In this document: piece after piece, positions 40,981 to 61,181 of the stretch
Position numbering within the stretch: position 1 is the stretch's first letter
Layout: each line of letters opens with the position of its first letter
NCBI GenBank assembly: GCA_963674735.2
Contig: CAXXQS010000001.1
Location: 480,001-544,000, forward strand
DNA: 64,000 nucleotides
Source: Myxococcota bacterium
Lineage (GTDB): Bacteria > Myxococcota_A > SURF-8
Reading direction: 5' to 3'
The notes under the pieces: model-generated
Told to the model about the DNA's origin: nothing
Database searches by the model: none
What the model saw: only the letters and a program-made list of their open reading frames with translations
Translations under genes and position numbers: made by a program

Positions 40981-42444
40981 TACCCAGTCTGACTGACCAT
41001 AGCTGTGACTCGCCGCCGCCGTGGCCGCCGTACCTTCAGCCAAGTTTCCATACCCAGTCTGACTGACCATAGCTGTGACAACATCAGTACCAATGAAAAT
41101 CTGCATGGCTGCGAATCGTTTCCATACCCAGTCTGACTGACCATAGCTGTGTCGGTCAGGACGGCACCGACGGTGTCAGCTGCAACGGCGTTTCCATACC
41201 CAGTCTGACTGACCATAGCTGTGACGGTAAGGTGTGCTCATTCGGTGAGTGGTGCTCATTCGGTGTTTCCATACCCAGTCTGACTGACCATAGCTGTGAC
41301 TCGCCGCCGCCGTGGCCGCCGTACCTTCAGCCAAGTTTCCATACCCAGTCTGACTGACCACAGCTGTGACTCCGGTGGACGACGGCTGCTTCGAGGGCTA
41401 CAAAAGTTTCCATACCCAGTCTGACTGACCATAGCTGTGACCGAATCCGTATTCCACCGCTTCGAGGGGTATGAGTTTCCATACCCAGTCTGACTGACCA
41501 TAGCTGTGACCCTGCCCGTTCTACAGCCGTTCGCAACTGCGCTGGCCTTCGGGTTTCCATACCCAGTCTGACTGACCATAGCTGTGACTTTACCACCCGA
41601 TTATCAAATCGGCCTAGCCGCTGTGTTTCCATACCCAGTCTGACTGACCACAGCTGTGACGGAGTCTGATAATCAAACAGGTAACTTAGGATAGTTTCCA
41701 TACCCAGTCTGACTGACCATAGCTGTGACAGTGATGAAGGCCGTTGCATATCGGATTGCTTGCAAGGTTTCCATACCCAGTCTGACTGACCATAGCTGTG
41801 ACGATTTTCATGTTTCACCCGCTCGGACAAGGATTCGCGTTTCCATACCCAGTCTGACTGACCATAGCTGTGACGAGTACAATCAGGTTCAGATGTGGGC
41901 CTGTATGTTTCCATACCCAGTCTGACTGACCATAGCTGTGACCATAAACCACATGGTGTGGGAGGAATACCCGTAGTTTCCATACCCAGTCTGACTGACC
42001 CCATAGCTGTGACAATTTCTTCGGTTACGGCCCACATGACGATGACTGGTTTCCATACCCAGTCTGACTGACCATAGCTGTGACAAAATCCCTGCCGAAC
42101 TCTTGGAGTCCCAAGCGGGATTGTTTCCATACCCAGTCTGACTGACCATAGCTGTGACGTATGCTCCAGGTGTGGAGCAATGATGGCGGAGGCAAGTTTC
42201 CATACCCAGTCTGACTGACCATAGCTGTGACTTCTTCGCCTCCGATTGCCGGTGAAGTCGTGTTGAGTTTCCATACCCAGTCTGACTGACCATAGCTGTG
42301 ACACCAGAATATGGTCACTATCATCAACAAGGTCCGTTTCCATACCCAGTCTGACTGACCATAGCTGTGACGAAAACGCTAGTTTGCCAGTGGATAAAAG
42401 GGAGGAGGGTTTCCATACCCAGTCTGACTGACCATAGCTGTGAC
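40981..42444 (-). CRISPR. CRISPR array 1: 21 repeats (trailer one truncated), 20 spacers
   Basis: 36-nt repeat GTCACAGCTATGGTCAGTCAGACTGGGTATGGAAAC on the minus strand (GAAAC 3' end); spacers 32-42 nt; leader on the high-coordinate side. Confidence 0.98.
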
Positions 42445-42844: not shown

Positions 42845-43135
42845 CTAAATGATAATGGCTGTCGGTGGTCCGGGAAGCTGCGTATCTCCGAATAAACTCG
42901 TATTCTCGCGACAATCCTGACAGAGGCGATAGACCTTGACCGTGTCCGTCTCATCCAAAATGAACGACAACTCATCCAGCAGGCGCTTCAGGTTTGCGGA
43001 TGAACAAACAAGCTCATACACGCAGTCCTGGACCCGATTGCCTTTGAATTTCAAGGTCTCACGAATCATCCTTTGACGTGCATGGCTTTTCACGTCGTAC
43101 ACCACCACCCAAAGGAAAAACTTGGAATCAGGCAT
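42845..43135 (-). CDS. cas2: CRISPR-associated endonuclease Cas2
   Basis: VVYDV, GNRVQDCVYE, D.VKVY.LC..C motifs; directly after the cas1 fusion. Confidence 0.93.
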   Translation of the reverse strand: MPDSKFFLWVVVYDVKSHARQRMIRETLKFKGNRVQDCVYELVCSSANLKRLLDELSFILDETDTVKVYRLCQDCRENTSLFGDTQLPGPPTAIII

Positions 43136-43144
43136 CTCATACTC

Positions 43145-46033
43145 CTACCATTTCATTTGAAAAGCATCGAAGGACAGCTCCGAACCATCGATATACCGCC
43201 GCAGCGACATGGCCTGTCGATAGAGGTGGCCTCGCAAGGTATCTGTTTTGTTCGTGGTATCCGAAACCTCGCGGGCTAGCTGATCCTCGAAGCGAAGCAG
43301 CAATAGTTTAACCGTTTTCGCGGTCATCATCACTCTGTATGGGCCTTTTTGCTTCCTGACAAAATCCGAATTTTTGACTTCACCATGATTGACCGCATTG
43401 ATTGCAACCCTGTCAACGACAAAGCGAAACGGCTCCATCAGGTCGGCCGCCAAGGCGGCGTAGCGGCCTTTGCCCTGGTGCAGTACGCCAAGGTACGGGT
43501 CCAGACCGACCGAAAATATTGTGGTGTGCGTAAGTCTGAACAATTGCGTATACAGGAAATTCAGCATCACATTGACTGGATCTTCAGCACCGCGCGTGGT
43601 TCGTCCAGTAAAAGCGGGTAGGTTGCCTTTGAGCCATTGCGGCCATTGGGAGAAATAGGCGTGCGCAGCTTGCCCTTCGATGCCTCTTAGCATGTCCGGA
43701 TCGGCAGCCTTTTCGGCGCGTGAAATCATCGCGCTCAATTGTTCCAACAATCTCGGAACATTATCTTCCTTGCGGCGACGAGCCAGCATGCGCGTGTTGC
43801 GTATTTTGGCGGACACGAGCTTTCTCGACACATTTAAACTCCCCGCTGAATCCTCCGACCATTTCCATTGCAGCAAAGTAATCGGCGATGGCGAGCGCAC
43901 CTTGTCGGGCAAAACCAGTCCGAGAGGCGTTCCGTCCCATTTGTGCAAGGCTATCGGAATTCGGTGACGCAAGGCTCTCTGCATGACGGAACTACCGATG
44001 TATTTACCACCAAGCAGAACCAGTTCCGAGATTTCGGACCAGGCGACCATAAGCGGCGGATTGTCCTTGCGTTCGATATAAAGCCCGCGCTTTTTACCGA
44101 TCAGTTTTGCGTCTCCGCTGACCACGTAGATGGGCTTGCGCTCGATGCTCGGAGGAGCGATGGGCGCGTGCCAGCGATGATGTGATGCACGGTCTTCTTC
44201 TTTACGCTCCGGATCCTTACCCTTGCTTTCCACAAAATCAGACAACCACCCCGACAGTTTGACGGAATCGCCTGTCTGCATCGCATTGACCGGCATACTC
44301 TTCAACACTTCGCTGGTCTTGCCTGATTTCTCCACGTCCAACACCACGCTTCGGCAAAACAGGGAACCCAGAAATCGAAACCCCCTGTCGAATGCCGTCT
44401 CGGCTGTTTTATCATCATTCAAAGCCAAGCCGAGCTTGTGCAATTCCTCGGTCACCGTCTTTCTTGCAAGCTCAAGGTCGGATTCGTTTTTGCCCATGAT
44501 AATAAAGTCGTCGGCAAATCGAACCAGCCGAAACCCCTTGGCCTCGATGACTTCGTCGAACCGGTCGAGATAAAGATTGGCCAGGATAGGAGCGATGACC
44601 GCACCTTGAGGCAGTCCTTTGATACGCTCGATGTTTCGGCCTTCAAACGCCACGGGCGCTTTGCACCAGCAAAGCAGAGCCGCGACAACCGGATCGTCTC
44701 CGAAATAAGCTTCGAGGCGCAGCAGGAGTTTGTCCCAATCCACCTCGTCGAAAAAAGCTCGGATGTCGGCATCGAGAATATACTTATATCCCTGCTCACG
44801 AGCTTGTAGAACGCTGCGCTTGGCGTGGCGATGGCTCAACCCCTTGCGATAGGCGAAGCTCGAATCTTCCAACAGTTGCTCGATGGCGGGCTGCATTTCC
44901 TGCAAAACGGCACGCTGCAAAAAACGGTCGCGCATGGTGGGAATGGCCAAGGGGCGCAGTTTAACCTTACCGGTTTCCTCCTGTTGCTCGCGAATGACGA
45001 GACCCCGCAAGGGATTCGGGGCTACCTTGTTTTTTCGCAGAGCCGAGGTCAGCTTCGGCATGTCGGTGGTCAGGCTGTCCAGAAATTCTTCACGGCCGAC
45101 ATCGTCGATGCCCGGAGCGGGACCGGCTTCGGTCAGCGCCTGGCGTGCCAAGACGATATTGTCCATATCCGCCGAGCGCTCCAGGATCGTTCGTGCCGGT
45201 TTGGGCGGCCAGTCGCCGTGCGGCGCGTGACCGGCAACCTCGAAACGCCCCTGTCCCATATTGCGGCCTTTGCCGATACCGACGATACCCGCCAGCAGAA
45301 TCGGCAAGGCCCATTCGCCTACAGCCCGGTCGAAGTGCAACGTTATCGATCCCGATGAGCCCAGCAGCCGTTTTTTGGGATAGGCCACGTCCGTGCGGAT
45401 CAAGCGATTTTCGGTCAGCAGCACCGAATAACTTGCGGGCACCTGCAAATTTTTGGAGAAGAGCGCAGGCCACCACTCACGAACCCTTTGGGCGACCCGC
45501 TCGAAAAATTTGCCCGGTAAGAAGACATCCCCATCCATGAGAAACGTCTTGCTCGCAACCGGTGAACGCAGAATCAGCAAGGGGGAGAGAAAGCGGATGG
45601 TGATGTCCCGCTTTTTCGAGAGCGCATCGGCTTTGTCCTGAACCATGTTCAATGTCAGGGATTGGGGATGCGACTTGGATAGAGGGCGATTCGCGATGAT
45701 GTCGGTGACGCGTTCCACTTCGTAGTTGTTGCTAAAGGGAGCTTTGTCCGTTCGCCCGAAATCGGAGCTTGGCGGCGACGCGATCAGCCGCGCGAACCTC
45801 TGCGGTGAGATCGGCCCGCCGGGCGCAAGCGCGACGCCCAGATGATAAGGCTCGTTTCGCCGATAAACAACACGGCCCCGCTCGGGCGTATAGATGGCGA
45901 CACCCGAAGGGAAGTCTCTGGGCGTACCGAGACGATCCATCAAGGCGGCATAGAGCGCCGGATGGTGAAAGAAATGCAACTGTGTTTCGCGCGTAAAGCG
46001 CAAACGCAGCTTAAGGAGATGGAGAAGCTCCAT
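43145..46033 (-). CDS. cas1: Cas6-reverse transcriptase-Cas1 fusion
   Basis: Cas6 G-loop GIGKGRNMGQG; RT motifs PGID, RPLAIPTMRDR, DADIRAFFD, GLPQG, RFADD, FLG; Cas1 motifs GIEGQAA, DPVNVMLN, LGVLH, DLMEPFR. Confidence 0.93.
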   Translation of the reverse strand: MELLHLLKLRLRFTRETQLHFFHHPALYAALMDRLGTPRDFPSGVAIYTPERGRVVYRRNEPYHLGVALAPGGPISPQRFARLIASPPSSDFGRTDKAPFSNNYEVERVTDIIANRPLSKSHPQSLTLNMVQDKADALSKKRDITIRFLSPLLILRSPVASKTFLMDGDVFLPGKFFERVAQRVREWWPALFSKNLQVPASYSVLLTENRLIRTDVAYPKKRLLGSSGSITLHFDRAVGEWALPILLAGIVGIGKGRNMGQGRFEVAGHAPHGDWPPKPARTILERSADMDNIVLARQALTEAGPAPGIDDVGREEFLDSLTTDMPKLTSALRKNKVAPNPLRGLVIREQQEETGKVKLRPLAIPTMRDRFLQRAVLQEMQPAIEQLLEDSSFAYRKGLSHRHAKRSVLQAREQGYKYILDADIRAFFDEVDWDKLLLRLEAYFGDDPVVAALLCWCKAPVAFEGRNIERIKGLPQGAVIAPILANLYLDRFDEVIEAKGFRLVRFADDFIIMGKNESDLELARKTVTEELHKLGLALNDDKTAETAFDRGFRFLGSLFCRSVVLDVEKSGKTSEVLKSMPVNAMQTGDSVKLSGWLSDFVESKGKDPERKEEDRASHHRWHAPIAPPSIERKPIYVVSGDAKLIGKKRGLYIERKDNPPLMVAWSEISELVLLGGKYIGSSVMQRALRHRIPIALHKWDGTPLGLVLPDKVRSPSPITLLQWKWSEDSAGSLNVSRKLVSAKIRNTRMLARRRKEDNVPRLLEQLSAMISRAEKAADPDMLRGIEGQAAHAYFSQWPQWLKGNLPAFTGRTTRGAEDPVNVMLNFLYTQLFRLTHTTIFSVGLDPYLGVLHQGKGRYAALAADLMEPFRFVVDRVAINAVNHGEVKNSDFVRKQKGPYRVMMTAKTVKLLLLRFEDQLAREVSDTTNKTDTLRGHLYRQAMSLRRYIDGSELSFDAFQMKW

Positions 46034-46069
46034 ACCCAACTCCTTTCAGCGGTTCAAGAGATCAGTGGG

Positions 46070-47081
46070 CAGTCTGACTGACCATAGCTGTGACGATCAA
46101 CCCCCAGTGGGTGATAACGGTCGGAACGAGAGTTTCCATACCCAGTCTGACTGACCATAGCTGTGACTTTGAAGAGCTGGTTTACGCTCCTCCTCAGCAG
46201 GTTGTGTTTCCATACCCAGTCTGACTGACCATAGCTGTGACCTCTGGTGGTTTGGCCTAATTGTGCTGGTACTGTTTCCATACCCAGTCTGACTGACCAT
46301 AGCTGTGACATGGTCATCTTGTTGCTGCTGTGCGCCACGTAGTTTCCATACCCAGTCTGACTGACCATAGCTGTGACTCTGGCCGATGAGGACAAAAGCA
46401 CCCTGTCGAAGTTTCCATACCCAGTCTGACTGACCATAGCTGTGACAGATCACAACTACGATATCGTCAAGCGTGAATTGTTTCCATACCCAGTCTGACT
46501 GACCATAGCTGTGACGCGGCAAGGGACTTTTTACTCACACCGGCGACATGAGTTTCCATACCCAGTCTGACTGACCATAGCTGTGACCATAAACCACATG
46601 GTGTGGGAGGAATACCCGTAGTTTCCATACCCAGTCTGACTGACCCCATAGCTGTGACAATTTCTTCGGTTACGGCCCACATGACGATGACTGGTTTCCA
46701 TACCCAGTCTGACTGACCATAGCTGTGACCTCTGAAGCCGAAACCACCTAAAAGGAGGTGAAGTTTCCATACCCAGTCTGACCGACCATAGCTGTGACGA
46801 GGAATGCCAGATCGAAGAATGGGGGGTGGAAGTTTCCATACCCAGTCTGACTGACCATAGCTGTGACTAGGAGTAGGACTTGGACTTTTGGCACTTGGTG
46901 GGTTTCCATACCCAGTCTGACTGACCATAGCTGTGACTTGATTGTATATCTAGCATCTTCTAGTATGATAATGTTTCCATACCCAGTCTGACTGACCATA
47001 GCTGTGACGCTGGACGGCTCGAACACCTTGTGTGTTCCGGACTATGTTTCCATACCCAGTCTGACTGACCATAGCTGTGAC
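46070..47081 (-). CRISPR. CRISPR array 2: 15 repeats (trailer one truncated), 14 spacers
   Basis: same 36-nt repeat as array 1. Confidence 0.98.
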
Positions 47082-47449
47082 TCTGGCCTTGTAAAGACTG
47101 GGAACCGTTGGGCTTTCAGACCGGGTTTGACAAGTCACCCTTCAAAATCCATTCACTATAGCCGTCAGACCGGAAAAAATGGGGTGCAGCAAAACTTTGG
47201 CACAAGCTAATCTCTTGTTTTCAAAGAGCTTTTCCAATTTGACAAGTCTCCAGCATGAAAACGAGCCGCCAAAGATGCTTTATCTAGTGAAGATTATAGG
47301 AGATTATGCCTGTTGCACGACTTTTGCAAGCGAAATATTCCGCAGACTTGTCAAATAATTATCGAACATTCAATTATTCTCAATGATATCATGGGGTCGC
47401 ACGACAATTTATAGTCATTCCACATCAGAGCTATTTCTGTTGCACCCCC
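47082..47449 (-). promoter_or_regulatory. CRISPR leader copy 2
   Basis: near-identical to the other two leaders. Confidence 0.9.
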
Positions 47450-47483: not shown

Positions 47484-49247
47484 CTAATTCTTGGGTAGCA
47501 ATCCTTTCTCGGTCTTGCATTTATCGTGGCAACTGACGATGCCGGAAATGCAATCGATGATGTCCGATCCTGTCCATATCAAGAACAAGGTAAGAGCTGA
47601 GAAAATGGGAATGCTGTATAATCCGATCGTCAGCAATAATTCTCCTTCGCTGCCTTCTCCCATTATCTCTTTGAGGTTCATGCCGAAGATCGAGGCGATC
47701 AGCGCCGGACCGGCCAGACCCAACATCGCAATATTCAGATAAGCGATGGAACCGAGCCTTCGCCCAACGGTTGCGTTGCTGAAATCGTGCAGGGCTTTGA
47801 TTTCTTTTTCGACCTCATCGAACAGCCGTTTGTTGCCCAAGTTGCGGCTCCACAGGTCAAACATTTCGATTCCCTGCTCCTGGCCGGTGACTTCGGAAAA
47901 CCAATATTTGTTGTGGAACTTCAGGAAGTCGGATCGCAAATCTTCCAATTCTCGGTGCAGCTTTTTGTTCTCCAACTTCCCTGGAGAGGTTGCTTGTTGC
48001 GCCAGTCGTGCCGCTCGATGGGAAAGATTCAGCAAAATCGCCCGCTGACCGATCAACAGATTTGCCATCTGGAAATACATCGAGTTGAAATGCTCCGGGA
48101 TCAATGTGCAGTTTGCATAACCGTTGCCGTGCAGCAAATACGTCCCGCTGTATCTTGTAAATCCATAATACGATCCCCAATCTCGAAAACGCAGATACAA
48201 GGACTGTTCCAGGCAATGGTCCCTGAATTCAGGATTAGAGGTATATTCCGTTGTGGAAGGATCGATAAAAATATATTGATAGAGCCGTTTTCTGAATTTT
48301 TCGCTTTGTGTCGTCAATTCGCCGAGGGGATTTCGAGTTTCACCGAACCGACACGGTCTGAACTCGCGTTCCCCAAAACCGGTGTCTGCATCATCAACAA
48401 TGGCTAACGAGCATACGAAGTTTCGCTCATCGAGGATCGGATTGAGGTTTTCGACCCTCAACGACTTTTTCAAATCCTTTGACTCTCCCGCACCGACAAG
48501 ATCTGCAAACAATTTTTCAATCCAGAATGTATAATGCTCGCCGATATAAGAGTTGGATTGCAGATCGTCTTCCTTGTCGGAATCGGGCTTTTGAGTGATG
48601 AATTCATCGAAATGCCTGCCAAACATTTCGGTACTGGCCGAATTTCCATCGGCCTTGACAATCTTGATCGAGAGAGGCAGTTCGTTTGCCCCTTTCTGCG
48701 CTTCGGACCAGTCTTTAACGGGATGTCCGGATACGTGGTCATAAACCTGATCGTATCCAATAAACGAAGGCCCTGAACGGCGTAATAGATTATTGATATC
48801 CAGAGCATCATCCAAACTCAATTGATTCGGGCTAGTGGCGTCATCACGAACATAAGATACGCCAAAGATAAGTGCGCCTACATCGAGATCGTAAAAATAG
48901 CCCATCACCCAATCGAGATTGACGAAGCGCGTTTTCTCTTTTTGAGATCTGCGCCACGATATTTCTATTTTCCAATTCTTGATTTTCTCTTCATAAACCT
49001 CGAAAGCCATCAGGCAAGGTCGATCCGACATACCGGTGCCAAACAATAGTTCTCTGGTATGAGGATGGAAATACTGATACTCGGCGAAAGTTTCAGGGTT
49101 ATGCGGTGAGATTTCAGGGGTGCGGAAAAACCACTCCCCCACAAAGTCTTTACGGCTAGTGGGATTATTTGAATCTTTCAGGGCGTTAAACGTACCCTGC
49201 TTCAATGAAAACGGAAAGTAGAACTGGGCTTTATAGAGGTGTAGCAT
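47484..49247 (-). CDS. corA: CRISPR-associated CorA-family membrane effector
   Basis: large soluble N-domain (FYFPF, YYGFTRYS, QRAILL, WFSEVTGQEQGIEMF); C-terminal 2 TM with SIFGMN (CorA GMN motif); follows cmr6. Confidence 0.85.
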   Translation of the reverse strand: MLHLYKAQFYFPFSLKQGTFNALKDSNNPTSRKDFVGEWFFRTPEISPHNPETFAEYQYFHPHTRELLFGTGMSDRPCLMAFEVYEEKIKNWKIEISWRRSQKEKTRFVNLDWVMGYFYDLDVGALIFGVSYVRDDATSPNQLSLDDALDINNLLRRSGPSFIGYDQVYDHVSGHPVKDWSEAQKGANELPLSIKIVKADGNSASTEMFGRHFDEFITQKPDSDKEDDLQSNSYIGEHYTFWIEKLFADLVGAGESKDLKKSLRVENLNPILDERNFVCSLAIVDDADTGFGEREFRPCRFGETRNPLGELTTQSEKFRKRLYQYIFIDPSTTEYTSNPEFRDHCLEQSLYLRFRDWGSYYGFTRYSGTYLLHGNGYANCTLIPEHFNSMYFQMANLLIGQRAILLNLSHRAARLAQQATSPGKLENKKLHRELEDLRSDFLKFHNKYWFSEVTGQEQGIEMFDLWSRNLGNKRLFDEVEKEIKALHDFSNATVGRRLGSIAYLNIAMLGLAGPALIASIFGMNLKEIMGEGSEGELLLTIGLYSIPIFSALTLFLIWTGSDIIDCISGIVSCHDKCKTEKGLLPKN

Positions 49248-49271: not shown

Positions 49272-50507
49272 TCACGAGTCCAGCTTCGACCATTGTTTCA
49301 AATTGCTGATGCAATCTTTGTATCGCTTGGATATGCGTTTAAGCACGCTATTTTTCTTAAGCAGCCTTGATGAAAGAACACTTCTAAATTCAGCTCGATC
49401 CGGGTCGGTCATGTTCAATATGGCTTCGTATACCTCGGCATTGCTTAACTCTTTCTCGAAAGCCTGAGCCTCTAGAGCCAGTTTGTCGGACTGTGCCTTT
49501 TGAGCCGGATCGGAAGTTAGGATACGCCTGACAGCGTCGTTGTTTTTCCACTCATTCGTTGGTAATTCCCGCATACGTCCATAACCAATGGCTGTTTTCG
49601 CTCCGATACCTTCTTTCTCCAAAGCCATACAAAGAATATCTTTCGCCCAGGAGCGCCAACCGGGTGCACCTTCCAATGCAACAAAGAAGCAGACATCGCT
49701 CCCCAAAGTGATGAACGGTATCGGATTTGGGCTGTCGTAGTCGGCGGGCGGAGGGACATCGCCTTTTGTCGCATCCGCCTGATAGTAATCCTGATGATGA
49801 ACGGTCATGACATCCGGCAAAAAGGGGCTTTTGTCGGTCGGGATCCACCATGCGTCATGAAAGACGATGCACCCGGCAGCATCCTGTCTGCCGAAAAGAT
49901 TGTCATAATACGTATACCCGTTTGAATCCACAAACCCCATATTTTCGTATTTCTTGATTTCCTTTTCGGTCTTTTCCTTATCCGGTCCAGATTTGTGCTT
50001 CGCTTCGTGCCAGCTTTCAGGACTCGGCAGAAAAGCGGATCGATTATCATCGGGCTCTAAATCGGTACACACGTTGATTGCGTCTTGCCCTTTGCCTTCA
50101 GCCTGCCAGCCTCCATAATACGTTTTACAGAAGTGCGACGCCAGCCCCTTTAGGGCGGAGCCGGGAATCATCGGTGCGCCGTAGGTACGGTTCAAGGTGA
50201 TACTGTTTTCCAAAACGCTATCCGCTCCAAGGCCGACAGCAGCCCTGGATTTGGATTCGATAATGACAACATCGGTATCATTCTTCAGTGAACGGCAATG
50301 ACGCATAAGCGCTAAGTTATAACAATCTGGTGCGCCGTAGCTATTCATAAGAAACTCGTACAGTTTCTTCTCAGCTGCATGCTCGTCTTTGAAAGCTTCA
50401 ACATACTTATCCAACAACAAACCTGCGTTGATACCTTCTTTCGGTTTTGGGTACCTAAGCTTGCTTAGAGCATCGCGTCTGGCATTCAGTCCGTTTTTCA
50501 TGGCCAA
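49272..50507 (-). CDS. cmr6: type III-B RAMP protein Cmr6
   Basis: VGLGADSVLENSITL, PMIPGSALKG, DVMTVHH, PNPIPF and GIGAKTAIGYG motifs. Confidence 0.93.
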   Translation of the reverse strand: MAMKNGLNARRDALSKLRYPKPKEGINAGLLLDKYVEAFKDEHAAEKKLYEFLMNSYGAPDCYNLALMRHCRSLKNDTDVVIIESKSRAAVGLGADSVLENSITLNRTYGAPMIPGSALKGLASHFCKTYYGGWQAEGKGQDAINVCTDLEPDDNRSAFLPSPESWHEAKHKSGPDKEKTEKEIKKYENMGFVDSNGYTYYDNLFGRQDAAGCIVFHDAWWIPTDKSPFLPDVMTVHHQDYYQADATKGDVPPPADYDSPNPIPFITLGSDVCFFVALEGAPGWRSWAKDILCMALEKEGIGAKTAIGYGRMRELPTNEWKNNDAVRRILTSDPAQKAQSDKLALEAQAFEKELSNAEVYEAILNMTDPDRAEFRSVLSSRLLKKNSVLKRISKRYKDCISNLKQWSKLDS

Positions 50508-50511
50508 CTCT

Positions 50512-50913
50512 CTAATCCGTGATCAGAATTTCCGCATAGCGTTTGTACCAAAGTCCGACATCCAAAGCTTTTTTTGTAAGCAGCATGTAATTCTCGCTTG
50601 AACAGTCATTACTGCTTAAATAACCATGAATAGTGTCGGTCGAAGACGCATTTGGCAATTCCAGGACCTCTTTAAGCTTTTCCAGGAAAACTTCGAAAGC
50701 TTTCGATTGCTCGGATTTCTTGTCGCTGGAGCCGCTGGCTTTGCTGTGGAAGAAGGCTACGGTCTGCATCAGGCCATTGGTTTTGACCAATATAGGAAAG
50801 CGCTTGCATACTCGGGAAAACTCGCCTTTCGGAAAGCCGCTCTTTTTGAGTAACTGGGTAAACTGGCCGTATATTTTCTGCGCATATACTTGGGATCGAA
50901 TCGTAAAAGCCAT
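50512..50913 (-). CDS. cmr5: type III-B small subunit Cmr5 (Cas11)
   Basis: FPILVKTNGLMQTVAF and WYKRYAE motifs; position in operon. Confidence 0.9.
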   Translation of the reverse strand: MAFTIRSQVYAQKIYGQFTQLLKKSGFPKGEFSRVCKRFPILVKTNGLMQTVAFFHSKASGSSDKKSEQSKAFEVFLEKLKEVLELPNASSTDTIHGYLSSNDCSSENYMLLTKKALDVGLWYKRYAEILITD

Positions 50914-50918
50914 GTCCG

Positions 50919-51845
50919 TTATCCTTTCGAAACCAGCCGCACACGACCGCGTCCTACTGTCGCTTTGCCACCCAATTGAATAGGGCGATCAGTAACAGTG
51001 GAATCGAATACGTAATCCAGTATTTGTTCGGGGCTATTCATGTCATTCAAGGGAGAGCCACCATCTTTGCCGCGCTCGAAGGAGTTGAAATGGGATCTTC
51101 CGGCAAGAGCCAGTCCCCATAATATACTCTCCGCCGGAAGCGCTTCTTCATACCAGAGAGCGCCTTTTTCCACGGTTTTCTTTTCGTCATCGATACGAAT
51201 ACGCGCGGCCACTTCTACGGCGTTTTGATAGAAGAATGAAAACACGTCATCACCGACAATAATGAACCGTTGTTTGAAATGATCCTGATATTCCTGGTCA
51301 TCCGGAAAAACAGAGGCTGCTATCGCCGCCGCCCAGTTGTCAACCAGTTCACAATATTGCGATCCGGTATCCACGCTCAGATCTAAATCCTCCAAATACA
51401 CCACCTCATTTCGGCAAGCGGCATTTTGATCGCCAACAAGGGCTTGCTTGCTTTCTGGAATTTTAGGAATTTCGAGGCTTGCATGATTAGAATCCCGTTT
51501 GTATCTTTGCAAGACTATCGGAGAAGATACCCAGGTAAAAACTCCATAGAATGAACGTACGGGAAGACATAGCAATCGTGCATCTCCGAATACTGTTGCA
51601 CCTGCATAGTCGGAGGCATTATCCGTGTCCGGGCCAAAGGCATTCATCACCCTATCCTTGACTCCGCCGTTCTTCTCCTTAGCCCAATGGCAATCTCGAA
51701 GTGCGCCCTTGATGGAGCTTCCAGGTACTATGGGTAAAGCCGTCGCCACCTCTCTTGCTATCGGGAGATCGAGGACACCCGATCCTTGCCCCGTTCCTGC
51801 GTGAAGAGCGGACAAAGCGTGTATATAATAAACGCGTTCAACCAT
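50919..51845 (-). CDS. cmr4: type III-B backbone / RNase Cmr4 (Cas7)
   Basis: LHAGTG..VLDLPIARE (catalytic Asp), PGSSIKG, LWYEE and QLGGKATVGRG motifs. Confidence 0.95.
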   Translation of the reverse strand: MVERVYYIHALSALHAGTGQGSGVLDLPIAREVATALPIVPGSSIKGALRDCHWAKEKNGGVKDRVMNAFGPDTDNASDYAGATVFGDARLLCLPVRSFYGVFTWVSSPIVLQRYKRDSNHASLEIPKIPESKQALVGDQNAACRNEVVYLEDLDLSVDTGSQYCELVDNWAAAIAASVFPDDQEYQDHFKQRFIIVGDDVFSFFYQNAVEVAARIRIDDEKKTVEKGALWYEEALPAESILWGLALAGRSHFNSFERGKDGGSPLNDMNSPEQILDYVFDSTVTDRPIQLGGKATVGRGRVRLVSKG

Positions 51846-51862
51846 AATTCGTTCTCCCGTTT

Positions 51863-52978
51863 CTAAGACCAAATTCCCCAAAGCGCAAGACCGAAACCAT
51901 TCTTACGATCCATCTCATTGTCGCTGATTGGCTTCATCCAGGCCTTGTTCAGAATCTTTTCGCAATCAGCTTCGTTTTCCATTTCGAGAAAGTAAATGCT
52001 TCCGGCAGGAACTAGCCGTCGAAGCGGCTTCTGACCGGTCTGCATATCCCAACCGGCTATGGGTGTCCATCTTGGAACAGCAGCGGATACAAGGCGAAGA
52101 GAAACGCCGACTACATCCCAGTGGACATATACTGATTTATCCTTGCCGGTAAAAACTTTAGGTAGGAAACCACCATTAAACAGGGCGGGGGTTACAAGTT
52201 GAAGCTTGATTTTTAACGACTCCCTCGCCTTGACTAAAAGCTCATCAGGAGAATCGCTTGGCCAGCTATCTGAATTCAGTTCTGTAAAACCCGCAAAGCC
52301 GCCTTCTCCTCCTATACGGTGAAAGATAGGTCCGGAAAACGCATTCAAGTCGGAGGCTGATACCGAAACCAGATACCCTCCTTCGAGTAGTTCATCTCCC
52401 CGCATTACTTGAGGATAAATGGATTCGCTCTGGAATAAGTGACTATCCTTGGCAGTATTGTTGTCGCCAATCGTGACATGCGTACGGTGTTCTGTTTCGG
52501 GTGAGTAGCCGTTTTCAAGAACATCCGACAAGGAAACTTGCTCACAGGCCAGCCACTTATATAGCTCCTTATCTCTCCAAAATAACGGAGGGTCACTCAT
52601 CGGCTTTCCGCCAGTCTGATTACTGCCTATTGGCAGTAACCCATCCGGCAAATTCATGCCTTCGCCATCTTTCAGCTCGAAGGGAGAAAGCCTCTTTATA
52701 GCAGTAGCCGGTAATATGGCATCAGCAGGTGCGGGAAAATAGTTGTGATCGCCGAGACGCAACACCGGGCCGTAAATCGACCAGTCCAGTACTCGTGCGA
52801 CTTCTACATCTGTGAACGAATAACCGAGCTGTTTTCCAAGCAAGGTTCTGATCGTACCGGTGGTAACGGAAGGATGAGGAAAAAGCTGAGTGCGCGCCGC
52901 GTCTCCAGTGTTGAAAGGTCGCGTATCCCTGAAAAGAAGTGGGCCGTTGGGTTGAATATGCAGGATAGCGTCCATCAT
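51863..52978 (-). CDS. cmr3: type III-B Cmr3 (Cas5)
   Basis: PLLFRDTRPF, PAPAD, IGGEG, LVTPALF, GWDM, VPAGSIY and GFG motifs. Confidence 0.93.
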   Translation of the reverse strand: MMDAILHIQPNGPLLFRDTRPFNTGDAARTQLFPHPSVTTGTIRTLLGKQLGYSFTDVEVARVLDWSIYGPVLRLGDHNYFPAPADAILPATAIKRLSPFELKDGEGMNLPDGLLPIGSNQTGGKPMSDPPLFWRDKELYKWLACEQVSLSDVLENGYSPETEHRTHVTIGDNNTAKDSHLFQSESIYPQVMRGDELLEGGYLVSVSASDLNAFSGPIFHRIGGEGGFAGFTELNSDSWPSDSPDELLVKARESLKIKLQLVTPALFNGGFLPKVFTGKDKSVYVHWDVVGVSLRLVSAAVPRWTPIAGWDMQTGQKPLRRLVPAGSIYFLEMENEADCEKILNKAWMKPISDNEMDRKNGFGLALWGIWS

Positions 52979-54696
52979 CAGTCTCCCTGCGCACTTTTTA
53001 TTGCTGCGTTTATTTGTGAAGCAATCTGTAAACTGCTGGATAGCTGATATAGATCCTCCACATTGTTTATCCGAGATAGAAACTTACGAGCCACCTCTTC
53101 TCGAAAATCTTTTTCAATGACTTTCATCTCCAGCAGCCTTACAACCTCCTTGTGTAACAAATCAGATGTCACCCATGGCAGTTGCTCGTGCTTGACCGGA
53201 TCCACGTATGTATGAGCAAGATTCTTAAACCCATAGAGGGTACGGTGAGAAATGAGACCCTTTCCGATCCATTCCAGTTGCTTTTTCATCTGCGCGGCGG
53301 GATCGTTCGTCCACGGGCATGTCCAGATCGTAGGTGCTCCGGAACGCTTGTAAAGAGCAACTGTTATTTTCCCTCTTTTGGCTGTTCGCTCGGCATCGTG
53401 GGCGAGCCGCAACATATCTCCAGCCATGGGCGTGAGGGCGTGCACAATGGCGATGCCAACCGACAATGTTGCTCCCGATAGATGCTTCTCGAATTCTGCT
53501 TGAAGTTGTTTCGCACAGTCAAAGGCGTAATCGAGGGGCAGGTAAGCGACCACATCATCACCACCGGCGTATATCAGACTACCCAGGCAATTGGTTTCAA
53601 CGATAGTTCTTGCTTCGGCGGCAAACCTTGACAGGGCGATTGAGAAATCACGATGCTCTTTCAGCGACATGTTCTGCGCTCGTGCAGTCATGTTGTCGCC
53701 ATCGCAGGCGAGAAAGGCAAGATAAGGAGAGGGCTCTTGCCCAAGCTTTATTAACTCACTTTTGATTTTATCGAAAACACCATCAACCGGAATTTCCTTG
53801 TTAATCGTATCAAGTCGCTGCTTCATCAAGAGTTCGCCATCGAATGGAAATGCCTCAAAACGCGGTTTAAGTTGATCCGAAACCTCGACAAGCGATTTCC
53901 ACTTCGAGAGCTTATCATCAAGGTTGCTTTTTATTATGCTGGCGATCTTTTCCCGTGTTTTTTTTCGCTTATCGTTGTCCCTGCTTCCTCTAACCCAAGG
54001 ATCGACGGCAATGCGCGAAACCGATGGGTAACGCGTCTGCTCTCCTGCTCCAAGGCGCTTCACGACACCGGGCATATCCAAGTGCTCCCCCGGTTTGATG
54101 CCCCGCCAAAGTCTGTTGTTGATGATTTTTTTGTTACCCTTTTCAAGCACTGTCTCCCGGCATCCATCGAGCGAAGACTTCTGAACCTTGGATGGACCGA
54201 ACCATTGCTCGAACTCACTGGTGGCTTCACGCGCATTCAAAAGGCGCTCCACTTTTGCACGAGCAACCGGGTAGGCGGCAATATCGCCGTTACCGTCGAA
54301 TCGAACCCATGCAGAAAAAAACTCAACGAGGTTTTCGTCTTCGAGTTGTTTCTTCCATGTTTCCTGTTTGATGCCGATTGAATCACCATGCTTCTGTAGG
54401 ATATTCCTTGCGAATTCACGCCAACAGGTAACGGCGACATTGCAGCCGATAGCAGAAGCATCGGCGGGGTCGACACCATCGTTGAGATGCAGTAATATTC
54501 TATCGGAAACCGGTGAGTCATCTTCGAAGCTGGCAGGCACAACGGGCTCAGCCCCTAAATCGATGATGGCTTTGGCCGCCTTGCGCGCCATTTGTGCCAC
54601 GAACCATGAACTGAAATGCAAATCGCGCGTACGCCTGGAGGCCTTGATAAAATCGAACACGGGACCCACAGAAAACATGAAAAGGTGACGGCTCAT
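52978..54696 (-). CDS. cas10: type III-B Cas10/Cmr2, HD-less, intact Palm2 GGDD
   Basis: begins at SVGPV.DFI..SRRTRDL (no HD domain); DGDNM, IYAGGDDV and TLSVGIAIVH motifs. Confidence 0.95.
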   Translation of the reverse strand: MSRHLFMFSVGPVFDFIKASRRTRDLHFSSWFVAQMARKAAKAIIDLGAEPVVPASFEDDSPVSDRILLHLNDGVDPADASAIGCNVAVTCWREFARNILQKHGDSIGIKQETWKKQLEDENLVEFFSAWVRFDGNGDIAAYPVARAKVERLLNAREATSEFEQWFGPSKVQKSSLDGCRETVLEKGNKKIINNRLWRGIKPGEHLDMPGVVKRLGAGEQTRYPSVSRIAVDPWVRGSRDNDKRKKTREKIASIIKSNLDDKLSKWKSLVEVSDQLKPRFEAFPFDGELLMKQRLDTINKEIPVDGVFDKIKSELIKLGQEPSPYLAFLACDGDNMTARAQNMSLKEHRDFSIALSRFAAEARTIVETNCLGSLIYAGGDDVVAYLPLDYAFDCAKQLQAEFEKHLSGATLSVGIAIVHALTPMAGDMLRLAHDAERTAKRGKITVALYKRSGAPTIWTCPWTNDPAAQMKKQLEWIGKGLISHRTLYGFKNLAHTYVDPVKHEQLPWVTSDLLHKEVVRLLEMKVIEKDFREEVARKFLSRINNVEDLYQLSSSLQIASQINAAIKSAQGD

Positions 54697-56114
54697 AACG
54701 ACACCTTCTTACCATCTGTTTTTGATTTGAAATAATGGCAGAATGCCTCGGAAGCGGTCAATGCCTTCTGTTCATTCATCAATATTATTTTTTCTGCGGA
54801 ATCGGCATTCTCCATTTCTCGCCTTTTCAATGTATAATCGTGTCGATCATCGAATTCAAGTTTGACCGATCCGGGAAGATTCCAAACATGCGAAACATTA
54901 AGATTCAAGACAATGGGCAAATATGTTTGTTTGCCACCGATTTTGATGCTCATTACTTTGATTATCAATCGTGAGGCATATCGGTCTGTACCTGCAAAAG
55001 TCAGCTTTGCATTTGCTAGTTCATCCGGTCTGCCGATAAAGCGAAATTGAATAGGCAAGCCGAAATCCGCCCTAGGAAAATAGATGCGACCTGGATGGCT
55101 CGGTGTATGTCTTCCCCAATTCACCGTTGAAAATCCTTGTCGAATTTCTCTCAGTGAATCAGGTTCTGGCCAGCGGCTTCTACCCAATTTAAACCTGTTA
55201 CGCGGGTCGCTTCCCTTGTTGCGACCAACTTCTTCCCCCTGCCTGAATTCTTGAAAGAGATTGATCGCCTTTTTCCAGGCATCCTTGGCGGAATTGCAGG
55301 ATGCGCCGACATACAGATGGCTTCCGCTCAGTCGGGGCCATGGGCTTGTTTCTGAGTTGTCCGGTTTTGTAAATGCTTCGGATAGCTGATCGCAATTTTC
55401 TACGGAAAGTGCATCAAGAATTCCAGGAGGTTCGATGGATTCGAGTTCCAAGCTCCCCAATCCTCGGCGCGTTCTCGACCCATATCCTCCAAATAGAATC
55501 CATGCCTTGAGTGCTTGCGAGATCTGCTCACTCAGCCCGCTCTCGTTCGGAAAGGAAATGATCAATTTAAATCGAGCATCCTTGCGCACAAATTTCGTAG
55601 CCAACTCGTTGCCTAAATTGTCAGCCTTTCCGCGTTCTTCATTGGGTTGCTGTAATGTCCATAATGCGTAGGCCGGCCCTTCTTCAAACCTTGCAAACGC
55701 CTTGGGCGGCCCGCCACTATAATTTTGCGGATGAACGCCCGACCTTACGTATTCTCCCTCGGAAAGTACTTCCGTTTGCACGATAACTTTCGACGGCTCT
55801 CCTTCATCGTCGCCACTCGCACCGCCGAAAAGCTCACGTTCACGCACCAACAGCGCCTTATCATCTTTTTGGGTCGCTCCTGCCGTGGCGCGCCACCAAA
55901 ACCGAAGATGGCCTTTAACGGTTGAAGAACGAATCTCCGCAATCTCGGGTGTTGATCCCGCTTCGAACCCGCCGCCGAATATCGGAGTGATGACCTTAAG
56001 GTTGGCCGCGATTTCATGGTGCTTCCCGGAATATCGCTGGTCCACGTCATTGGCAATTGCGCTAGGATCCAACTGTAGGCCGGGACCGTTGACCGGAGTT
56101 CGGAAAGGCGACAT
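54693..56114 (-). CDS. cmr1: type III-B RAMP protein Cmr1
   Basis: ITPIFGGG, KGHLRFWWRA, FGGYGSRTRRGLG, SRWPEPD and FGLPI motifs; start could be 56165. Confidence 0.93.
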   Translation of the reverse strand: MSPFRTPVNGPGLQLDPSAIANDVDQRYSGKHHEIAANLKVITPIFGGGFEAGSTPEIAEIRSSTVKGHLRFWWRATAGATQKDDKALLVRERELFGGASGDDEGEPSKVIVQTEVLSEGEYVRSGVHPQNYSGGPPKAFARFEEGPAYALWTLQQPNEERGKADNLGNELATKFVRKDARFKLIISFPNESGLSEQISQALKAWILFGGYGSRTRRGLGSLELESIEPPGILDALSVENCDQLSEAFTKPDNSETSPWPRLSGSHLYVGASCNSAKDAWKKAINLFQEFRQGEEVGRNKGSDPRNRFKLGRSRWPEPDSLREIRQGFSTVNWGRHTPSHPGRIYFPRADFGLPIQFRFIGRPDELANAKLTFAGTDRYASRLIIKVMSIKIGGKQTYLPIVLNLNVSHVWNLPGSVKLEFDDRHDYTLKRREMENADSAEKIILMNEQKALTASEAFCHYFKSKTDGKKVSL

Positions 56115-56292
56115 AACTAACCCCAACGATAGGTTTTGGAAAGCTGGAATTGATTGACTTCTCAACTGTACATTCTATTTATCATATTCAAAATGGCGTT
56201 TGCAAGATTATTCTTATGCATTTTAATCCAATTGCTTTAGTCTGCAAAACAACAAACCACTAGAGTCACGCAACAAGTCACCTACCGGGCGA

Positions 56293-57795
56293 TTAAATAT
56301 CATCATTTTTCAATATCATTCCCGCTTCTCTCGGATCGAAATCTTCAGGAAAGATTGTAGCACGAATTTCAGATTCGGTGTTTGGGTATATGATTTCAGA
56401 GTTATAAATCGCACCCTTTAGTTGAGCAGACTTAAAGTGCACCACACCTGAAAGATTTGCACCCCTTAAGTCCGCTTTCTCCAGATACGAATTGGTGAGT
56501 TCCGCCCCTTCCATATTGGCGTCTGATAAATCAGCACCATTCAGTAGCGCTCTCTGTAATTTACAGCCTTTCATGATGGCTCCTTGCAGAATGGCATTCT
56601 CAAGTTGAGCCTCTTGTAGGTTCGCCCTATCCAAACAAGACCCGCTAAGATCAGTATTCATTAGTTTGGCATTTACCAGCTTCGCATCTTCGAGGTGTAT
56701 GCGCTCCAGTTTCGCACTTTGGAGGTCTTTTCCCGAGAGATCAACACCTTTGAAATGAGCATCACGAAAATCTACCTCTTTAAATACAGCTTCTTTTAAA
56801 TCTACATTTTCCAGGGTTGCCTTGTTAAAGAAAGCATTTTCTAAGTTAGCTCCTCTGAAATCTACGTTTTTAAACTTTGCCCCAATTAGTTCGGCTCTTT
56901 GCAAGTGTGTTTTTTGCAATTCTACGTTTTCTAAAACAGCATTTATAAAAAACGCCCTTTCCAAGTGGGCATCATTCATTGTTGACTCTCTCACGTTCGC
57001 ATTATTGAATGAAGCACTTTCTAAACGGGCACGGTCCAAATACGATTTGTGCAAACAAGCCGAATGAAAACTTGCTCCTCCAAGGTTGGAATCTCCAAAA
57101 TCAACGCTACTGAAACTTGAATTTGATAAGTTAGCATTTCGTAAATAAGTACCGCGCAAGTCAACAATTTGCTTGTTTCTATCAGCAAATTTTAAACTCT
57201 TATCTCCAAGAAGAGTCAAAGCCGCTTGCACCTCTGCTTTAGGCGGCATACTTGATTCTTCATCTATTAAGCCAGACAGTCCATTGATGGCATCTTGCCA
57301 AGGCACAGTCGCTCGGATAAATGCCGATAGATATTCAACGATTATCTTACTATCACCAGGTGAGTCTTTTGCTATTCGCTCAAATTGTAGGATAGCCCCG
57401 ATTTTAGTTATAGGCTCTTGGTCTCCCAATAGCTCAAACGTTTTTGCCAAACGTTCTATAATAAGTCTTTTCTTCTCTTGCTCTACAGTATGCTTGTGCT
57501 TTTCCGCTGCAAGATTTGCGTTCGTTTGGGCGATATCTATTTCTTCATCCTTGTGCTTCACCCTCCAGATCCAAGTCAGAATTAGAGAGGGTGAAGCGGC
57601 AATGCCCGAAATCAGCACCCAAGCTTTCGCGTCAATCAGAAAACAGTACAGTGAGTCAAAGTTGACAACGTAGCTATATACTATGCAAGGAGCAACAACG
57701 AGAATGGCTCCAGTCACAGCCATGCAGATGATCCAACATGTCCTAGATTGTCCATTTCGTGTTTTAGATTCTGAAGATTCTAGATTCTCTTGCAT
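56293..57795 (-). CDS. membrane-anchored pentapeptide-repeat protein
   Basis: 2 N-terminal TM, coiled coil, helical IGAILQFERIAKDS..LSAFIR domain, then a long A(D/N)Lxx repeat tract; AT-rich; alternative start TTG 57825. Confidence 0.88.
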   Translation of the reverse strand: MQENLESSESKTRNGQSRTCWIICMAVTGAILVVAPCIVYSYVVNFDSLYCFLIDAKAWVLISGIAASPSLILTWIWRVKHKDEEIDIAQTNANLAAEKHKHTVEQEKKRLIIERLAKTFELLGDQEPITKIGAILQFERIAKDSPGDSKIIVEYLSAFIRATVPWQDAINGLSGLIDEESSMPPKAEVQAALTLLGDKSLKFADRNKQIVDLRGTYLRNANLSNSSFSSVDFGDSNLGGASFHSACLHKSYLDRARLESASFNNANVRESTMNDAHLERAFFINAVLENVELQKTHLQRAELIGAKFKNVDFRGANLENAFFNKATLENVDLKEAVFKEVDFRDAHFKGVDLSGKDLQSAKLERIHLEDAKLVNAKLMNTDLSGSCLDRANLQEAQLENAILQGAIMKGCKLQRALLNGADLSDANMEGAELTNSYLEKADLRGANLSGVVHFKSAQLKGAIYNSEIIYPNTESEIRATIFPEDFDPREAGMILKNDDI

Positions 57796-57867
57796 CGTAT
57801 TCTTATCCTTTAGAATATCACCCAATCACATAGTCTGTTACATATGCTTGCTTGGTGCTGTCTTGTT

Positions 57868-58263
57868 ATTTCCATACCCAGTCTGACTGACCATAGCTAT
57901 GACTGCCGAATTTGTTGCTGTATAAGCAGTACTCCTTGGTTTCCATACCCAGTCTGACTGACCATAGCTATGACGATACTCCGCTTGGAGGTACCGACTA
58001 TTCGCGTTGGTTTCCATACCCAGTCTGACTGACCATAGCTATGACACTTCTACGGATAGAGGGTGCGACGGCACCATCGAAGTTTCCATACCCAGTCTGA
58101 CTGACCATAGCTATGACTTTGGTAGTAGTATTAATCGTCATCGGGCTTTAAGAGTTTCCATACCCAGTCTGACTGACCATAGCTATGACGTCTTTGCCGC
58201 TGTTCCTTCCTGGGATGGCGCTACCTGGTTTCCATACCCAGTCTGACTGACCATAGCTATGAC
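57868..58263 (-). CRISPR. CRISPR array 3: 6 repeats, 5 spacers (plus a degenerate repeat at about 57820-57841)
   Basis: variant repeat GTCATAGCTATGG... (C5>T) in all six copies. Confidence 0.97.
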
Positions 58264-59798: not shown

Positions 59799-60260
59799 CT
59801 ACAACAACCCATTCCCATCCACCTCCACTCCCGCTGCTCTCAATTCACGAATCAGGTTGATTTTCCACGCCCCTTCAGGCGTGTATTTGGCGAAGAGCAC
59901 GCCCCGATAATTTGATGGTATCTCAACATTTCCCTTGAATAGCGCCACCACCCGGTTTCGCCCGAGTTTGCCGATAAAGTAGCCAAGCTCAAAAAGCACG
60001 TTCTGGCGTGCCCTTGGGAACAGCTCGCCCTCCTGCCCTTTCAAGCAGGCCAGATCGTCAGGCGTCAGCAGGATCACGGCGAAATCGACATCGGCGTGTC
60101 GTTCAAACTTTTCGATGATCGTTTTCCCTTCGTTCGGAAGCTCCTGCAAGATAATCGGCGACAGCTTCATCTTTTCGAGAAAGCGGGCTACGGATTCCAA
60201 AATCTCGTTGTCTTTGCCGTGGGAAATGAAAACGCGGTGGTTTATTTGGGGTTGATTCAT
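59799..60260 (-). CDS. stand-alone TIR-like nucleotide-binding protein (CAP12/Pycsar TIR type)
   Basis: VFISHG, TIIEKFE, FAVILLTPDD and RARQNVLFELGYF (catalytic Glu) motifs. Confidence 0.88.
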   Translation of the reverse strand: MNQPQINHRVFISHGKDNEILESVARFLEKMKLSPIILQELPNEGKTIIEKFERHADVDFAVILLTPDDLACLKGQEGELFPRARQNVLFELGYFIGKLGRNRVVALFKGNVEIPSNYRGVLFAKYTPEGAWKINLIRELRAAGVEVDGNGLL

Positions 60261-61160: not shown

Positions 61161-61181
61161 AGGTTCGGATTATGTGCTATA

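Follow-up and report, generated by a model that had tools for sequence, protein, structure and literature searches.

What does the Cas10 of a type III CRISPR system make when the residues that hold its second substrate have changed charge? The question is raised by a 64,000-nucleotide stretch of DNA from a Myxococcota bacterium (contig CAXXQS010000001.1; hereafter, the window), which encodes a type III-B system with the effector CorA. Its Cas10 carries aspartate and glutamate (D65 and E157) at the two positions that align with D70 and E151 of Bacteroides fragilis Cas10. Judging from sequence comparison, we think that it probably joins S-adenosylmethionine (SAM) to adenosine triphosphate (ATP) to synthesize SAM-AMP, with CorA as the effector. 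The gene in question is:

52978..54696, minus strand: cas10/cmr2, a single open reading frame (ORF) of 572 amino acids (aa), with SVGPVF at residues 9-14, DGD at 332-334, and GGDD at 378-381

The gene lies where a sequence-only reading of the window had placed it, and its strand is the minus strand; a plus-strand reading of the interval is ruled out by stop codons throughout. The protein was assigned to its family by NCBIfam TIGR02577 (1e-42) and by the Pfam models Cmr2_N and Cas10-Cmr2_palm2. It is a short Cas10 without an HD domain, whose N terminus opens directly at the Cmr2_N motif (SVGPVF). The catalytic motifs are intact (D332-G333-D334 and G378-G379-D380-D381) and invariant across the clade to which the protein belongs, and the variant positions of the acceptor pocket are F14, D65, E157, and S160. 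The segments pointed out in the earlier reading, namely, SPVSDRIL (D65), LNAREATSEF (E157 and E161), and GPVF at residues 11-14 in place of GPVQ, are all present in the translation. The motifs with which they were compared are genuine: the solved short Cmr2 9arw_A has IPNRF and LMGAIKSVRAF, and HMMER pairs its Asn with D65 and its Lys with E157. An AlphaFold2 model made with 120 sequences (mean predicted local distance difference test score, 92.3) places D65 just before the strand at 66-71 and E157 at the end of the helix at 141-158. In the Foldseek ranking, B. fragilis Cas10 (template modeling score, 0.54-0.59) came after Cmr2 of Pyrococcus furiosus (0.70-0.74) and DtCmr 9arw (0.72). The description of the protein as an ordinary short Cmr2 framework also holds in sequence, with 33-40% identity to Cmr2 proteins that have Asn and Lys at the two positions (Asn/Lys Cmr2s) versus ∼18% to the B. 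fragilis-type group.

That B. fragilis Cas10 has D70 and E151 in place of phosphate-contacting Asn and Arg agrees with Chi et al. 2023 (PMC10600005). In that account, both residues are absolutely conserved in the CorA-1 cluster, i.e., in CorA-linked Cas10s. They replace P. furiosus N300 and R436, respectively, both of which contact the phosphates of the acceptor ATP, and the double substitution D70N/E151R abolished SAM-AMP synthesis and raised pppApA.

We collected 80 genome loci encoding CorA relatives and extracted their Cas10s. In 52 full-length Cas10s from loci other than L001, the Asp of a G-x3-D-R-x-I motif was conserved in 100% and the Glu of an L-D-x-x-E motif in 96%. A profile of 51 CorA-linked Cas10s matched B. 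fragilis Cas10 (PDB 9lq5_B) at 6e-121, and HMMER alignment to that chain identified the two columns as D70 (GLFPDRYIF) and E151 (KYLNIIENQETF). We then compared the window Cas10 and its closest relatives (the Asp/Glu clade) with the 51-Cas10 profile by hhalign, which aligned 408 columns at 18% identity with a probability of 99.9 and paired SPVSDRIL with GIFPDRLI and LLNAREATSEF with ILANCELQDKY. Because hhalign places them in the same columns, D65 pairs with D70 and E157 with E151. HMMER alignment to 9lq5_B and a MAFFT alignment of 100 Cas10s give the same result; together, the three show, as far as alignment can, the equivalence that had been proposed by eye. E161, the alternative that had been offered for E157, was rejected: the alignments pick E157, and E161 pairs with an Asp of the family.

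At the columns of residues 65 and 157 in the MAFFT alignment, all 10 rows of the Asp/Glu clade (nine labeled rows plus L179) have Asp and Glu, as do all 30 CorA-1-like rows; among 59 rows of other Cmr2s, 57 have Asn and Lys and 2 have Asn and Arg. In P. furiosus Cmr2, the counterpart of the Asn of the Asn/Lys family is the Asn of LPNK, which we take to be N300 from index arithmetic between PDB chains and the protein length. In the Asp/Glu clade, the Arg of CRDF is replaced by Ser, Thr, Met, or Val (position 160), and the Gln of GPVQ is gone from 8 of 9 representatives, as it is from 30 of 30 CorA-1-like rows; the charge of the pocket shifts about four units towards negative.

The clade is rare. 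Among 121 aligned proteins (the query and its 120 closest homologues), 113 read N(V/I)AN and LLAGRKNCRDF, and 8 (the query and seven relatives) read PVSD and LLxARE. When 263 Cas10s were aligned to one hidden Markov model (HMM), the two columns held N/K in 239, D/E in 15, D/T in 7, D/N in 1, and S/K in 1. In a tree built without the trait columns, the D/E rows group as a single clade (support, 100/99); the Asp/Glu pattern is not due to chance. When 1.84 billion cluster representatives were searched with a profile, the Asp/Glu proteins came back as seven clusters (six at 776-880 bits and one, P0151, at 540 bits), with Asn/Lys proteins starting at 484 bits and lower. No description of the clade was found by literature search or in the available portions of PMC10600005, PMC11229360 (including its "cora" sheet), PMC13294483, PMC12255297, and PMC12669027; it may be present without comment in a Cas10 tree already published.

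The same short Cmr2 family includes a second variant clade, outside the window (P0156, P0174, P0189, P0198, P0209, P0242, P0275, and P0257), in which Asp (AVAD) takes the place of Asn, and Thr or Asn (LLAGRT) that of Lys. Its members retain the Arg, and most have lost the GPVQ Gln. This Asp/Thr clade is monophyletic (Shimodaira-Hasegawa-like approximate likelihood ratio test, 99) and, in a quick tree, is not the sister of the Asp/Glu clade.

The presence of CorA next to Cas10 lends independent support to SAM-AMP signaling. The corA gene directly follows cmr6, and its product matches the PADLOC CorA model PDLC01174 (6.9e-70), with no match in Pfam or NCBIfam. From its translation, CorA has a soluble N-terminal domain with RR (156-157) and DER (273-275), hydrophobic C-terminal helices, and FGMN; we discarded GMN as a CorA hallmark, because it occurs in just 2 of 10 members of the subfamily. 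A search of 5.8 billion proteins found only 17 homologues. Both CorA subfamilies, that of the window and that of CorA-1, retain the motifs RR and D[D/E]R. By position, those of the window CorA would correspond to the B. fragilis motifs R152/R153 and D219/D220, where the substitutions R152A/R153A and D219A/D220A inactivate the protein (Chi et al., PMC10600005).

The Asp/Glu Cas10s and this CorA subfamily are linked: of nine Asp/Glu cluster representatives, seven are encoded on the same contig as a member of that subfamily, and the other two are on contigs of ≤4.3 kb (contig sharing was judged from records of identical length and, for one pair, from accession numbers five apart). Five loci (the window, L001, L081, L082, and G018/L197) have the order cmr1-cas10-cmr3-cmr4-cmr5-cmr6-corA; in CorA-1-like loci, corA is upstream of cmr1 and cas10 is downstream of corA. 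Two genomes of a single genus differ at this point: G018 has an Asp/Glu Cas10 with CorA; in G048, the Cmr2 is of the Asn/Lys type (PNYF, ARK), cmr6 is followed by a gene for a CARF protein (Cas_APE2256), and there is no CRISPR-type CorA. Among 401 sampled genomes of the phylum, 48 had a Cmr2 match and 6 had a CRISPR-type CorA. CorA-like matches in four other genomes of the phylum were rejected: one (G005) resembles type III-D2, and the rest are on short contigs without Cas10. In the former (L204, G005:C73, from the same order as the window genome), the corA gene adjoins a gene for a 471-aa Cas10 and genes for large fused repeat-associated mysterious proteins (RAMPs), and the locus looks like type III-D2.

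The type III-B system of the window is complete, with cmr1, cas10, and cmr3 to cmr6 in one operon, all above the NCBIfam or Pfam cutoff, and with three CRISPR arrays. Besides cas10, its features, all on the minus strand, are:

41044..42444, minus strand: CRISPR array A, ∼20 copies of the same 36-nucleotide repeat as array B
42845..43135, minus strand: cas2, 96 aa (TIGR01573, 5.5e-11)
43145..46039, minus strand: cas6-reverse transcriptase-cas1 fusion, 964 aa (Pfam Cas1, 5e-65; RVT_1, 1.5e-33; weak Cas6; also matched in NCBIfam)
46059..47081, minus strand: CRISPR array B, ∼15 copies of a 36-nucleotide repeat, between corA and the adaptation genes
47484..49247, minus strand: corA, 587 aa (PADLOC match as given above)
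49272..50507, minus strand: cmr6, 411 aa (TIGR01898, 5.8e-39)
50512..50913, minus strand: cmr5, 133 aa (Pfam Cas_Cmr5, 4.1e-21)
50919..51881, minus strand: cmr4, 320 aa (TIGR02580, 2.2e-68)
51863..52978, minus strand: cmr3, 371 aa (Pfam Cas_Cmr3, 5.3e-54)
54693..56165, minus strand: cmr1, 490 aa (TIGR01894, 1.1e-13; Pfam RAMPs)
56293..57825, minus strand: pentapeptide-repeat protein, 510 aa (Pfam Pentapeptide, 4e-59); its translation shows two hydrophobic segments near the N terminus
57868..58263, minus strand: CRISPR array C, 6 copies of a repeat variant with one to two mismatches, upstream of cmr1

The repeat pattern had 38 matches in the window versus 0 expected. We place array B on the minus strand on two grounds: the reverse complement ends in GGAAAC, and the minus strand is also that of the cas genes. 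Two ORFs that might have been accessory genes (46054-47138 and 41327-42343, the latter 338 aa) were rejected; they are translations of CRISPR repeats. Arrays A and B flank the adaptation genes, and because they have several spacers in common, as well as a variant repeat with a two-base insertion, we suggest that they reflect partial duplication of an array. The genome (three contigs, 5.26 Mb) encodes a single Cas10 and a single CRISPR-type CorA; it has no other type III system, and no effector besides CorA is linked to this one. Scans with NCBIfam, Pfam, and PADLOC saw no CARF, SAVED, or ring-nuclease family in the locus.

Other neighbors include the predicted membrane-anchored pentapeptide-repeat protein, which sits between cmr1 and array C and is without a homologue in any of the four further Asp/Glu loci that we examined. 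Farther upstream, a 153-aa stand-alone TIR domain protein of the CAP12/Pycsar type (59799-60260, minus strand) gives a match (4e-65) to the PADLOC candidate system PDC-S35, over its C-terminal half, and a Replic_Relax-like protein (weak match) and a DnaG-type primase (zinc ribbon, Toprim) adjoin the defense genes at 60297-62309. Insertion sequence-type transposases are found at 32353-33474 and 38660-39736 in the window. These transposases and the Replic_Relax-like and DnaG-type genes hint at a mobile or island setting of the defense genes.

We infer the following steps for what Cas10 makes, what CorA binds, and what becomes of the cell. Binding of target RNA by the Cmr complex would switch on the GGDD palm domains, with ATP in the donor site. 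In an ordinary acceptor site, Asn, Lys, and Arg grip the triphosphate of a second ATP. Here, Asp65 stands in for the Asn, Glu157 for the Lys, Ser160 for the Arg, and Phe14 for the GPVQ Gln; with its charge altered in this way, the site would favor the positively charged methionine end of SAM. The predicted product, SAM-AMP, would be a dead-end conjugate, unable to cyclize. Binding would take place at the RR and D-E-R site, conserved in the cytoplasmic domain of CorA, and activated CorA would damage the membrane or arrest growth.

Type III-B systems known to use SAM-AMP nearly always encode an enzyme that degrades it (NrN, DEDD, or lyase). We defined three control families from CorA-1-like loci: a 124-131-aa family matching the PDB SAM-AMP lyase (6e-71), a ∼250-aa DHH family matching PDB NrN (6e-60), and a ∼185-aa family of RNase AS-like DEDD proteins. 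No PHROGs or NCBIfam labels were found for the lyase and NrN families. Counting was limited to the 54 loci with sufficient flanking DNA. The 51 CorA-1-like loci among them encode NrN in 31 cases, DEDD in 8, lyase in 2, and none of these in 10; the 3 Asp/Glu loci encode none. HMMs of the three families gave 0 matches at E≤0.1 among six-frame ORFs of at least 70 aa from the whole window genome and the G018 locus. Three housekeeping DHH proteins in the genome were rejected as NrN, since none matches the NrN HMM; the nearest is ∼100 kb away. Apart from the cmr genes, corA, RT-cas1 (the reverse transcriptase-cas1 gene), and cas2, the Asp/Glu loci have no genes in common. Candidates for a conserved extra gene beside corA were likewise rejected: the 142-aa ORF in L001 and the 559-aa ORF in G018 lack family matches and counterparts elsewhere. 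Absence of these enzymes was also seen in one CorA-1-like locus from a Sulfurovum metagenome-assembled genome (L021, 7832-9850), where proteins with an NYN domain and a Card1-like endonuclease domain are encoded just upstream of corA.

Several points weigh against SAM-AMP as the signal. With the window and G018 added, NrN, DEDD, or lyase is encoded in 0 of 5 Asp/Glu loci. In published accounts, these enzymes typically accompany type III-B CorA, so that the Asp/Glu clade, which has none in its loci, is an exception to the published pattern; immunity by the B. fragilis system in Escherichia coli needs NrN or lyase; and Hoikkala et al. took a comparable lack of these enzymes as an argument that certain CorA proteins respond to a different molecule. 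The ligand could also differ because identity to the B. fragilis-type proteins is low (∼18% for Cas10 and 22-32% for CorA). Finally, the Glu is the weaker marker of the pair, because E151R alone had little effect in B. fragilis (PMC10600005).

These points could be met by an acceptor other than SAM, or by a longer SAM product such as SAM-AMP2, sensed by the divergent CorA subfamily. This would account for the lack of a known SAM-AMP-degrading enzyme, present in 41 of 51 CorA-1-like loci and in none of the five Asp/Glu loci (nor elsewhere in the window genome), and would suit a CorA subfamily that is distinct and rare. Type III-D2, which makes SAM-AMP2 as well, likewise does without these enzymes, and Makarova et al. 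2025 single out exceptions of this kind for the search for new messengers. We nevertheless regard a different product as unlikely: both marker residues are exactly those of SAM-AMP makers, the ligand-site motifs of CorA are kept, and no further candidate sensor or enzyme is conserved across Asp/Glu loci. Still less probable, in our view, is an ordinary cyclic-oligoadenylate (cOA) synthase whose acidic residues serve some other purpose and whose CorA is opened by cOA, as was proposed for Actinomyces CorA. In overall fold and sequence, the window Cas10 is nearest to cOA-type Cmr2s, no SAM-AMP off-switch was found in the searches above, and Hoikkala et al. propose clades of cOA-sensing CorA. However, three phosphate-contacting positions are lost and two of them are now acidic, which shifts the net charge by about four; the reverse double change in B. 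fragilis (D70N/E151R) alters substrate preference; and the CARF, SAVED, and ring-nuclease families were not seen in the locus. Synthesis of SAM-AMP is thus the reading that we favor.

Did the Asp/Glu pair arise once or twice? For all trees bearing on its origin, the columns around residues 12-16, 62-68, and 153-162 were removed. With 99 rows, a quick tree under LG+G4 nested the Asp/Glu clade among Asn/Lys Cmr2s and placed CorA-1 elsewhere, on a long branch. Under LG+C20+F+G4, a careful search with 51 rows gave the same free topology; the Asp/Glu clade was supported at 100/99, CorA-1 at 100/100, and the backbone branches at 100/99, 99/96, and 93/93. Joining the Asp/Glu clade and CorA-1 under this model costs 22.95 log-likelihood units and is weakly rejected (approximately unbiased test [p-AU], 0.034). 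The sequence-only reading had raised an independent origin as a possibility; it is favored under this better model, but LG+G4 does not reject the joined tree (p-AU 0.55). We therefore lean, in a model-dependent way, towards an origin of the pair within the Asn/Lys Cmr2 lineage, apart from the B. fragilis-type cluster. Repeated origins have precedent, because there is a separate Asp/Thr clade and because type III-D2 recognizes SAM by other residues. More tentatively, there may have been a second, convergent acquisition of SAM-AMP synthesis inside the cOA-type Cmr2 family, via three or four substitutions at the B. fragilis sites; the resulting system would operate with CorA alone, the supposedly obligatory degrading partner being dispensable in the native host or replaced by an unrecognized enzyme.

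A single origin, to which we give somewhat less credence than to separate ones, would derive the Asp/Glu clade and the CorA-1 Cas10s from one CorA-linked, SAM-AMP-making ancestor, with fast evolution in CorA-1 and retention of Cmr2-like sequence in the window clade. The best joined tree under LG+G4 is 4.35 log-likelihood units above the free quick tree, and both groups have a homologous CorA with the same motifs and use the same two residue positions. The CorA-1 branch is also very long (1.6-2.7 changes per column) and hard to place, so that its position is inherently unsure. On the other hand, the three backbone branches of the LG+C20+F+G4 tree part the two groups, and corA is downstream of cmr6 here versus upstream of cmr1 in CorA-1-like loci. 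The change of Asn to Asp, moreover, occurs in the separate Asp/Thr clade as well, and the type III-D2 Cas10 is SAM specific via different residues.

SAM-AMP signaling has been demonstrated in two systems, B. fragilis type III-B and one type III-D2 (PMC10600005 and PMC13294483). Within this known SAM-AMP/CorA signaling, what is new in the clade is its ordinary Cmr2 background and the lack of a known degrading partner. At 33-40% identity to Asn/Lys Cmr2s, residues 14, 65, 157, and 160 could be swapped in both directions between close natural relatives, and such swaps would address necessity and sufficiency for the use of SAM over ATP. Immunity through B. fragilis CorA requires NrN or lyase; five natural loci with CorA and without a known degrading enzyme bear on this off-switch puzzle. 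An independent origin, if it holds, would make the clade a clear example of parallel evolution at the molecular level, with the same two sites changed.

Among known systems, the Cmr/CorA/NrN system of B. fragilis type III-B (CorA-1; PDB 9LQ5-9LQ8) resembles that of the window in having Cmr1 to Cmr6, a short Cas10 without HD, the aligned Asp/Glu pair, and a homologous CorA with RR and D[D/E]R; some members of its cluster also have RT-Cas1. It differs in the low identity of its Cas10 (∼18%), in the position of corA (downstream of cmr6 in the window), and in NrN, DEDD, and lyase, which the window lacks. In profile comparisons with PDB chains, the window Cas10 scores 58 bits to 9lq5_B versus 171 to 9arw_A and 112 to P. 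furiosus Cmr2. Unlike the B. fragilis type, it keeps KSSLDG and LDxxGxVKR of ordinary Cmr2s, and it has SVGPVF and PVSDRIL rather than the CorA-1 motifs TIGPI(Y) and G-x3-DR-x-I.

The Asn/Lys short Cmr2 family, with DtCmr (9ARW) as its solved relative, is the closest in full-length identity (33-40%), in its tree, within which the clade nests, and in its domain layout, again without HD. The window clade departs from it at Asp65 (from Asn), Glu157 (from Lys), position 160 (Ser, Thr, Met, or Val from Arg), and Gln14 (lost in 8 of 9), and in its effector, CorA versus the CARF protein of G048, the genus-mate of G018.

As for the type III-D2 Cas10 of Gammaproteobacteria bacterium HyVt-522, PMC13294483 describes an enzyme that, like ours, is linked to CorA without NrN, DEDD, or lyase and that makes SAM-AMP. 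In contrast to the window system, it has a Cas7x3 and Cas7-5 architecture and recognizes SAM by E8 and Q186 rather than by a D70/E151 pair; features of its own are that it also makes SAM-AMP2 and that a toxin-antitoxin module is needed.

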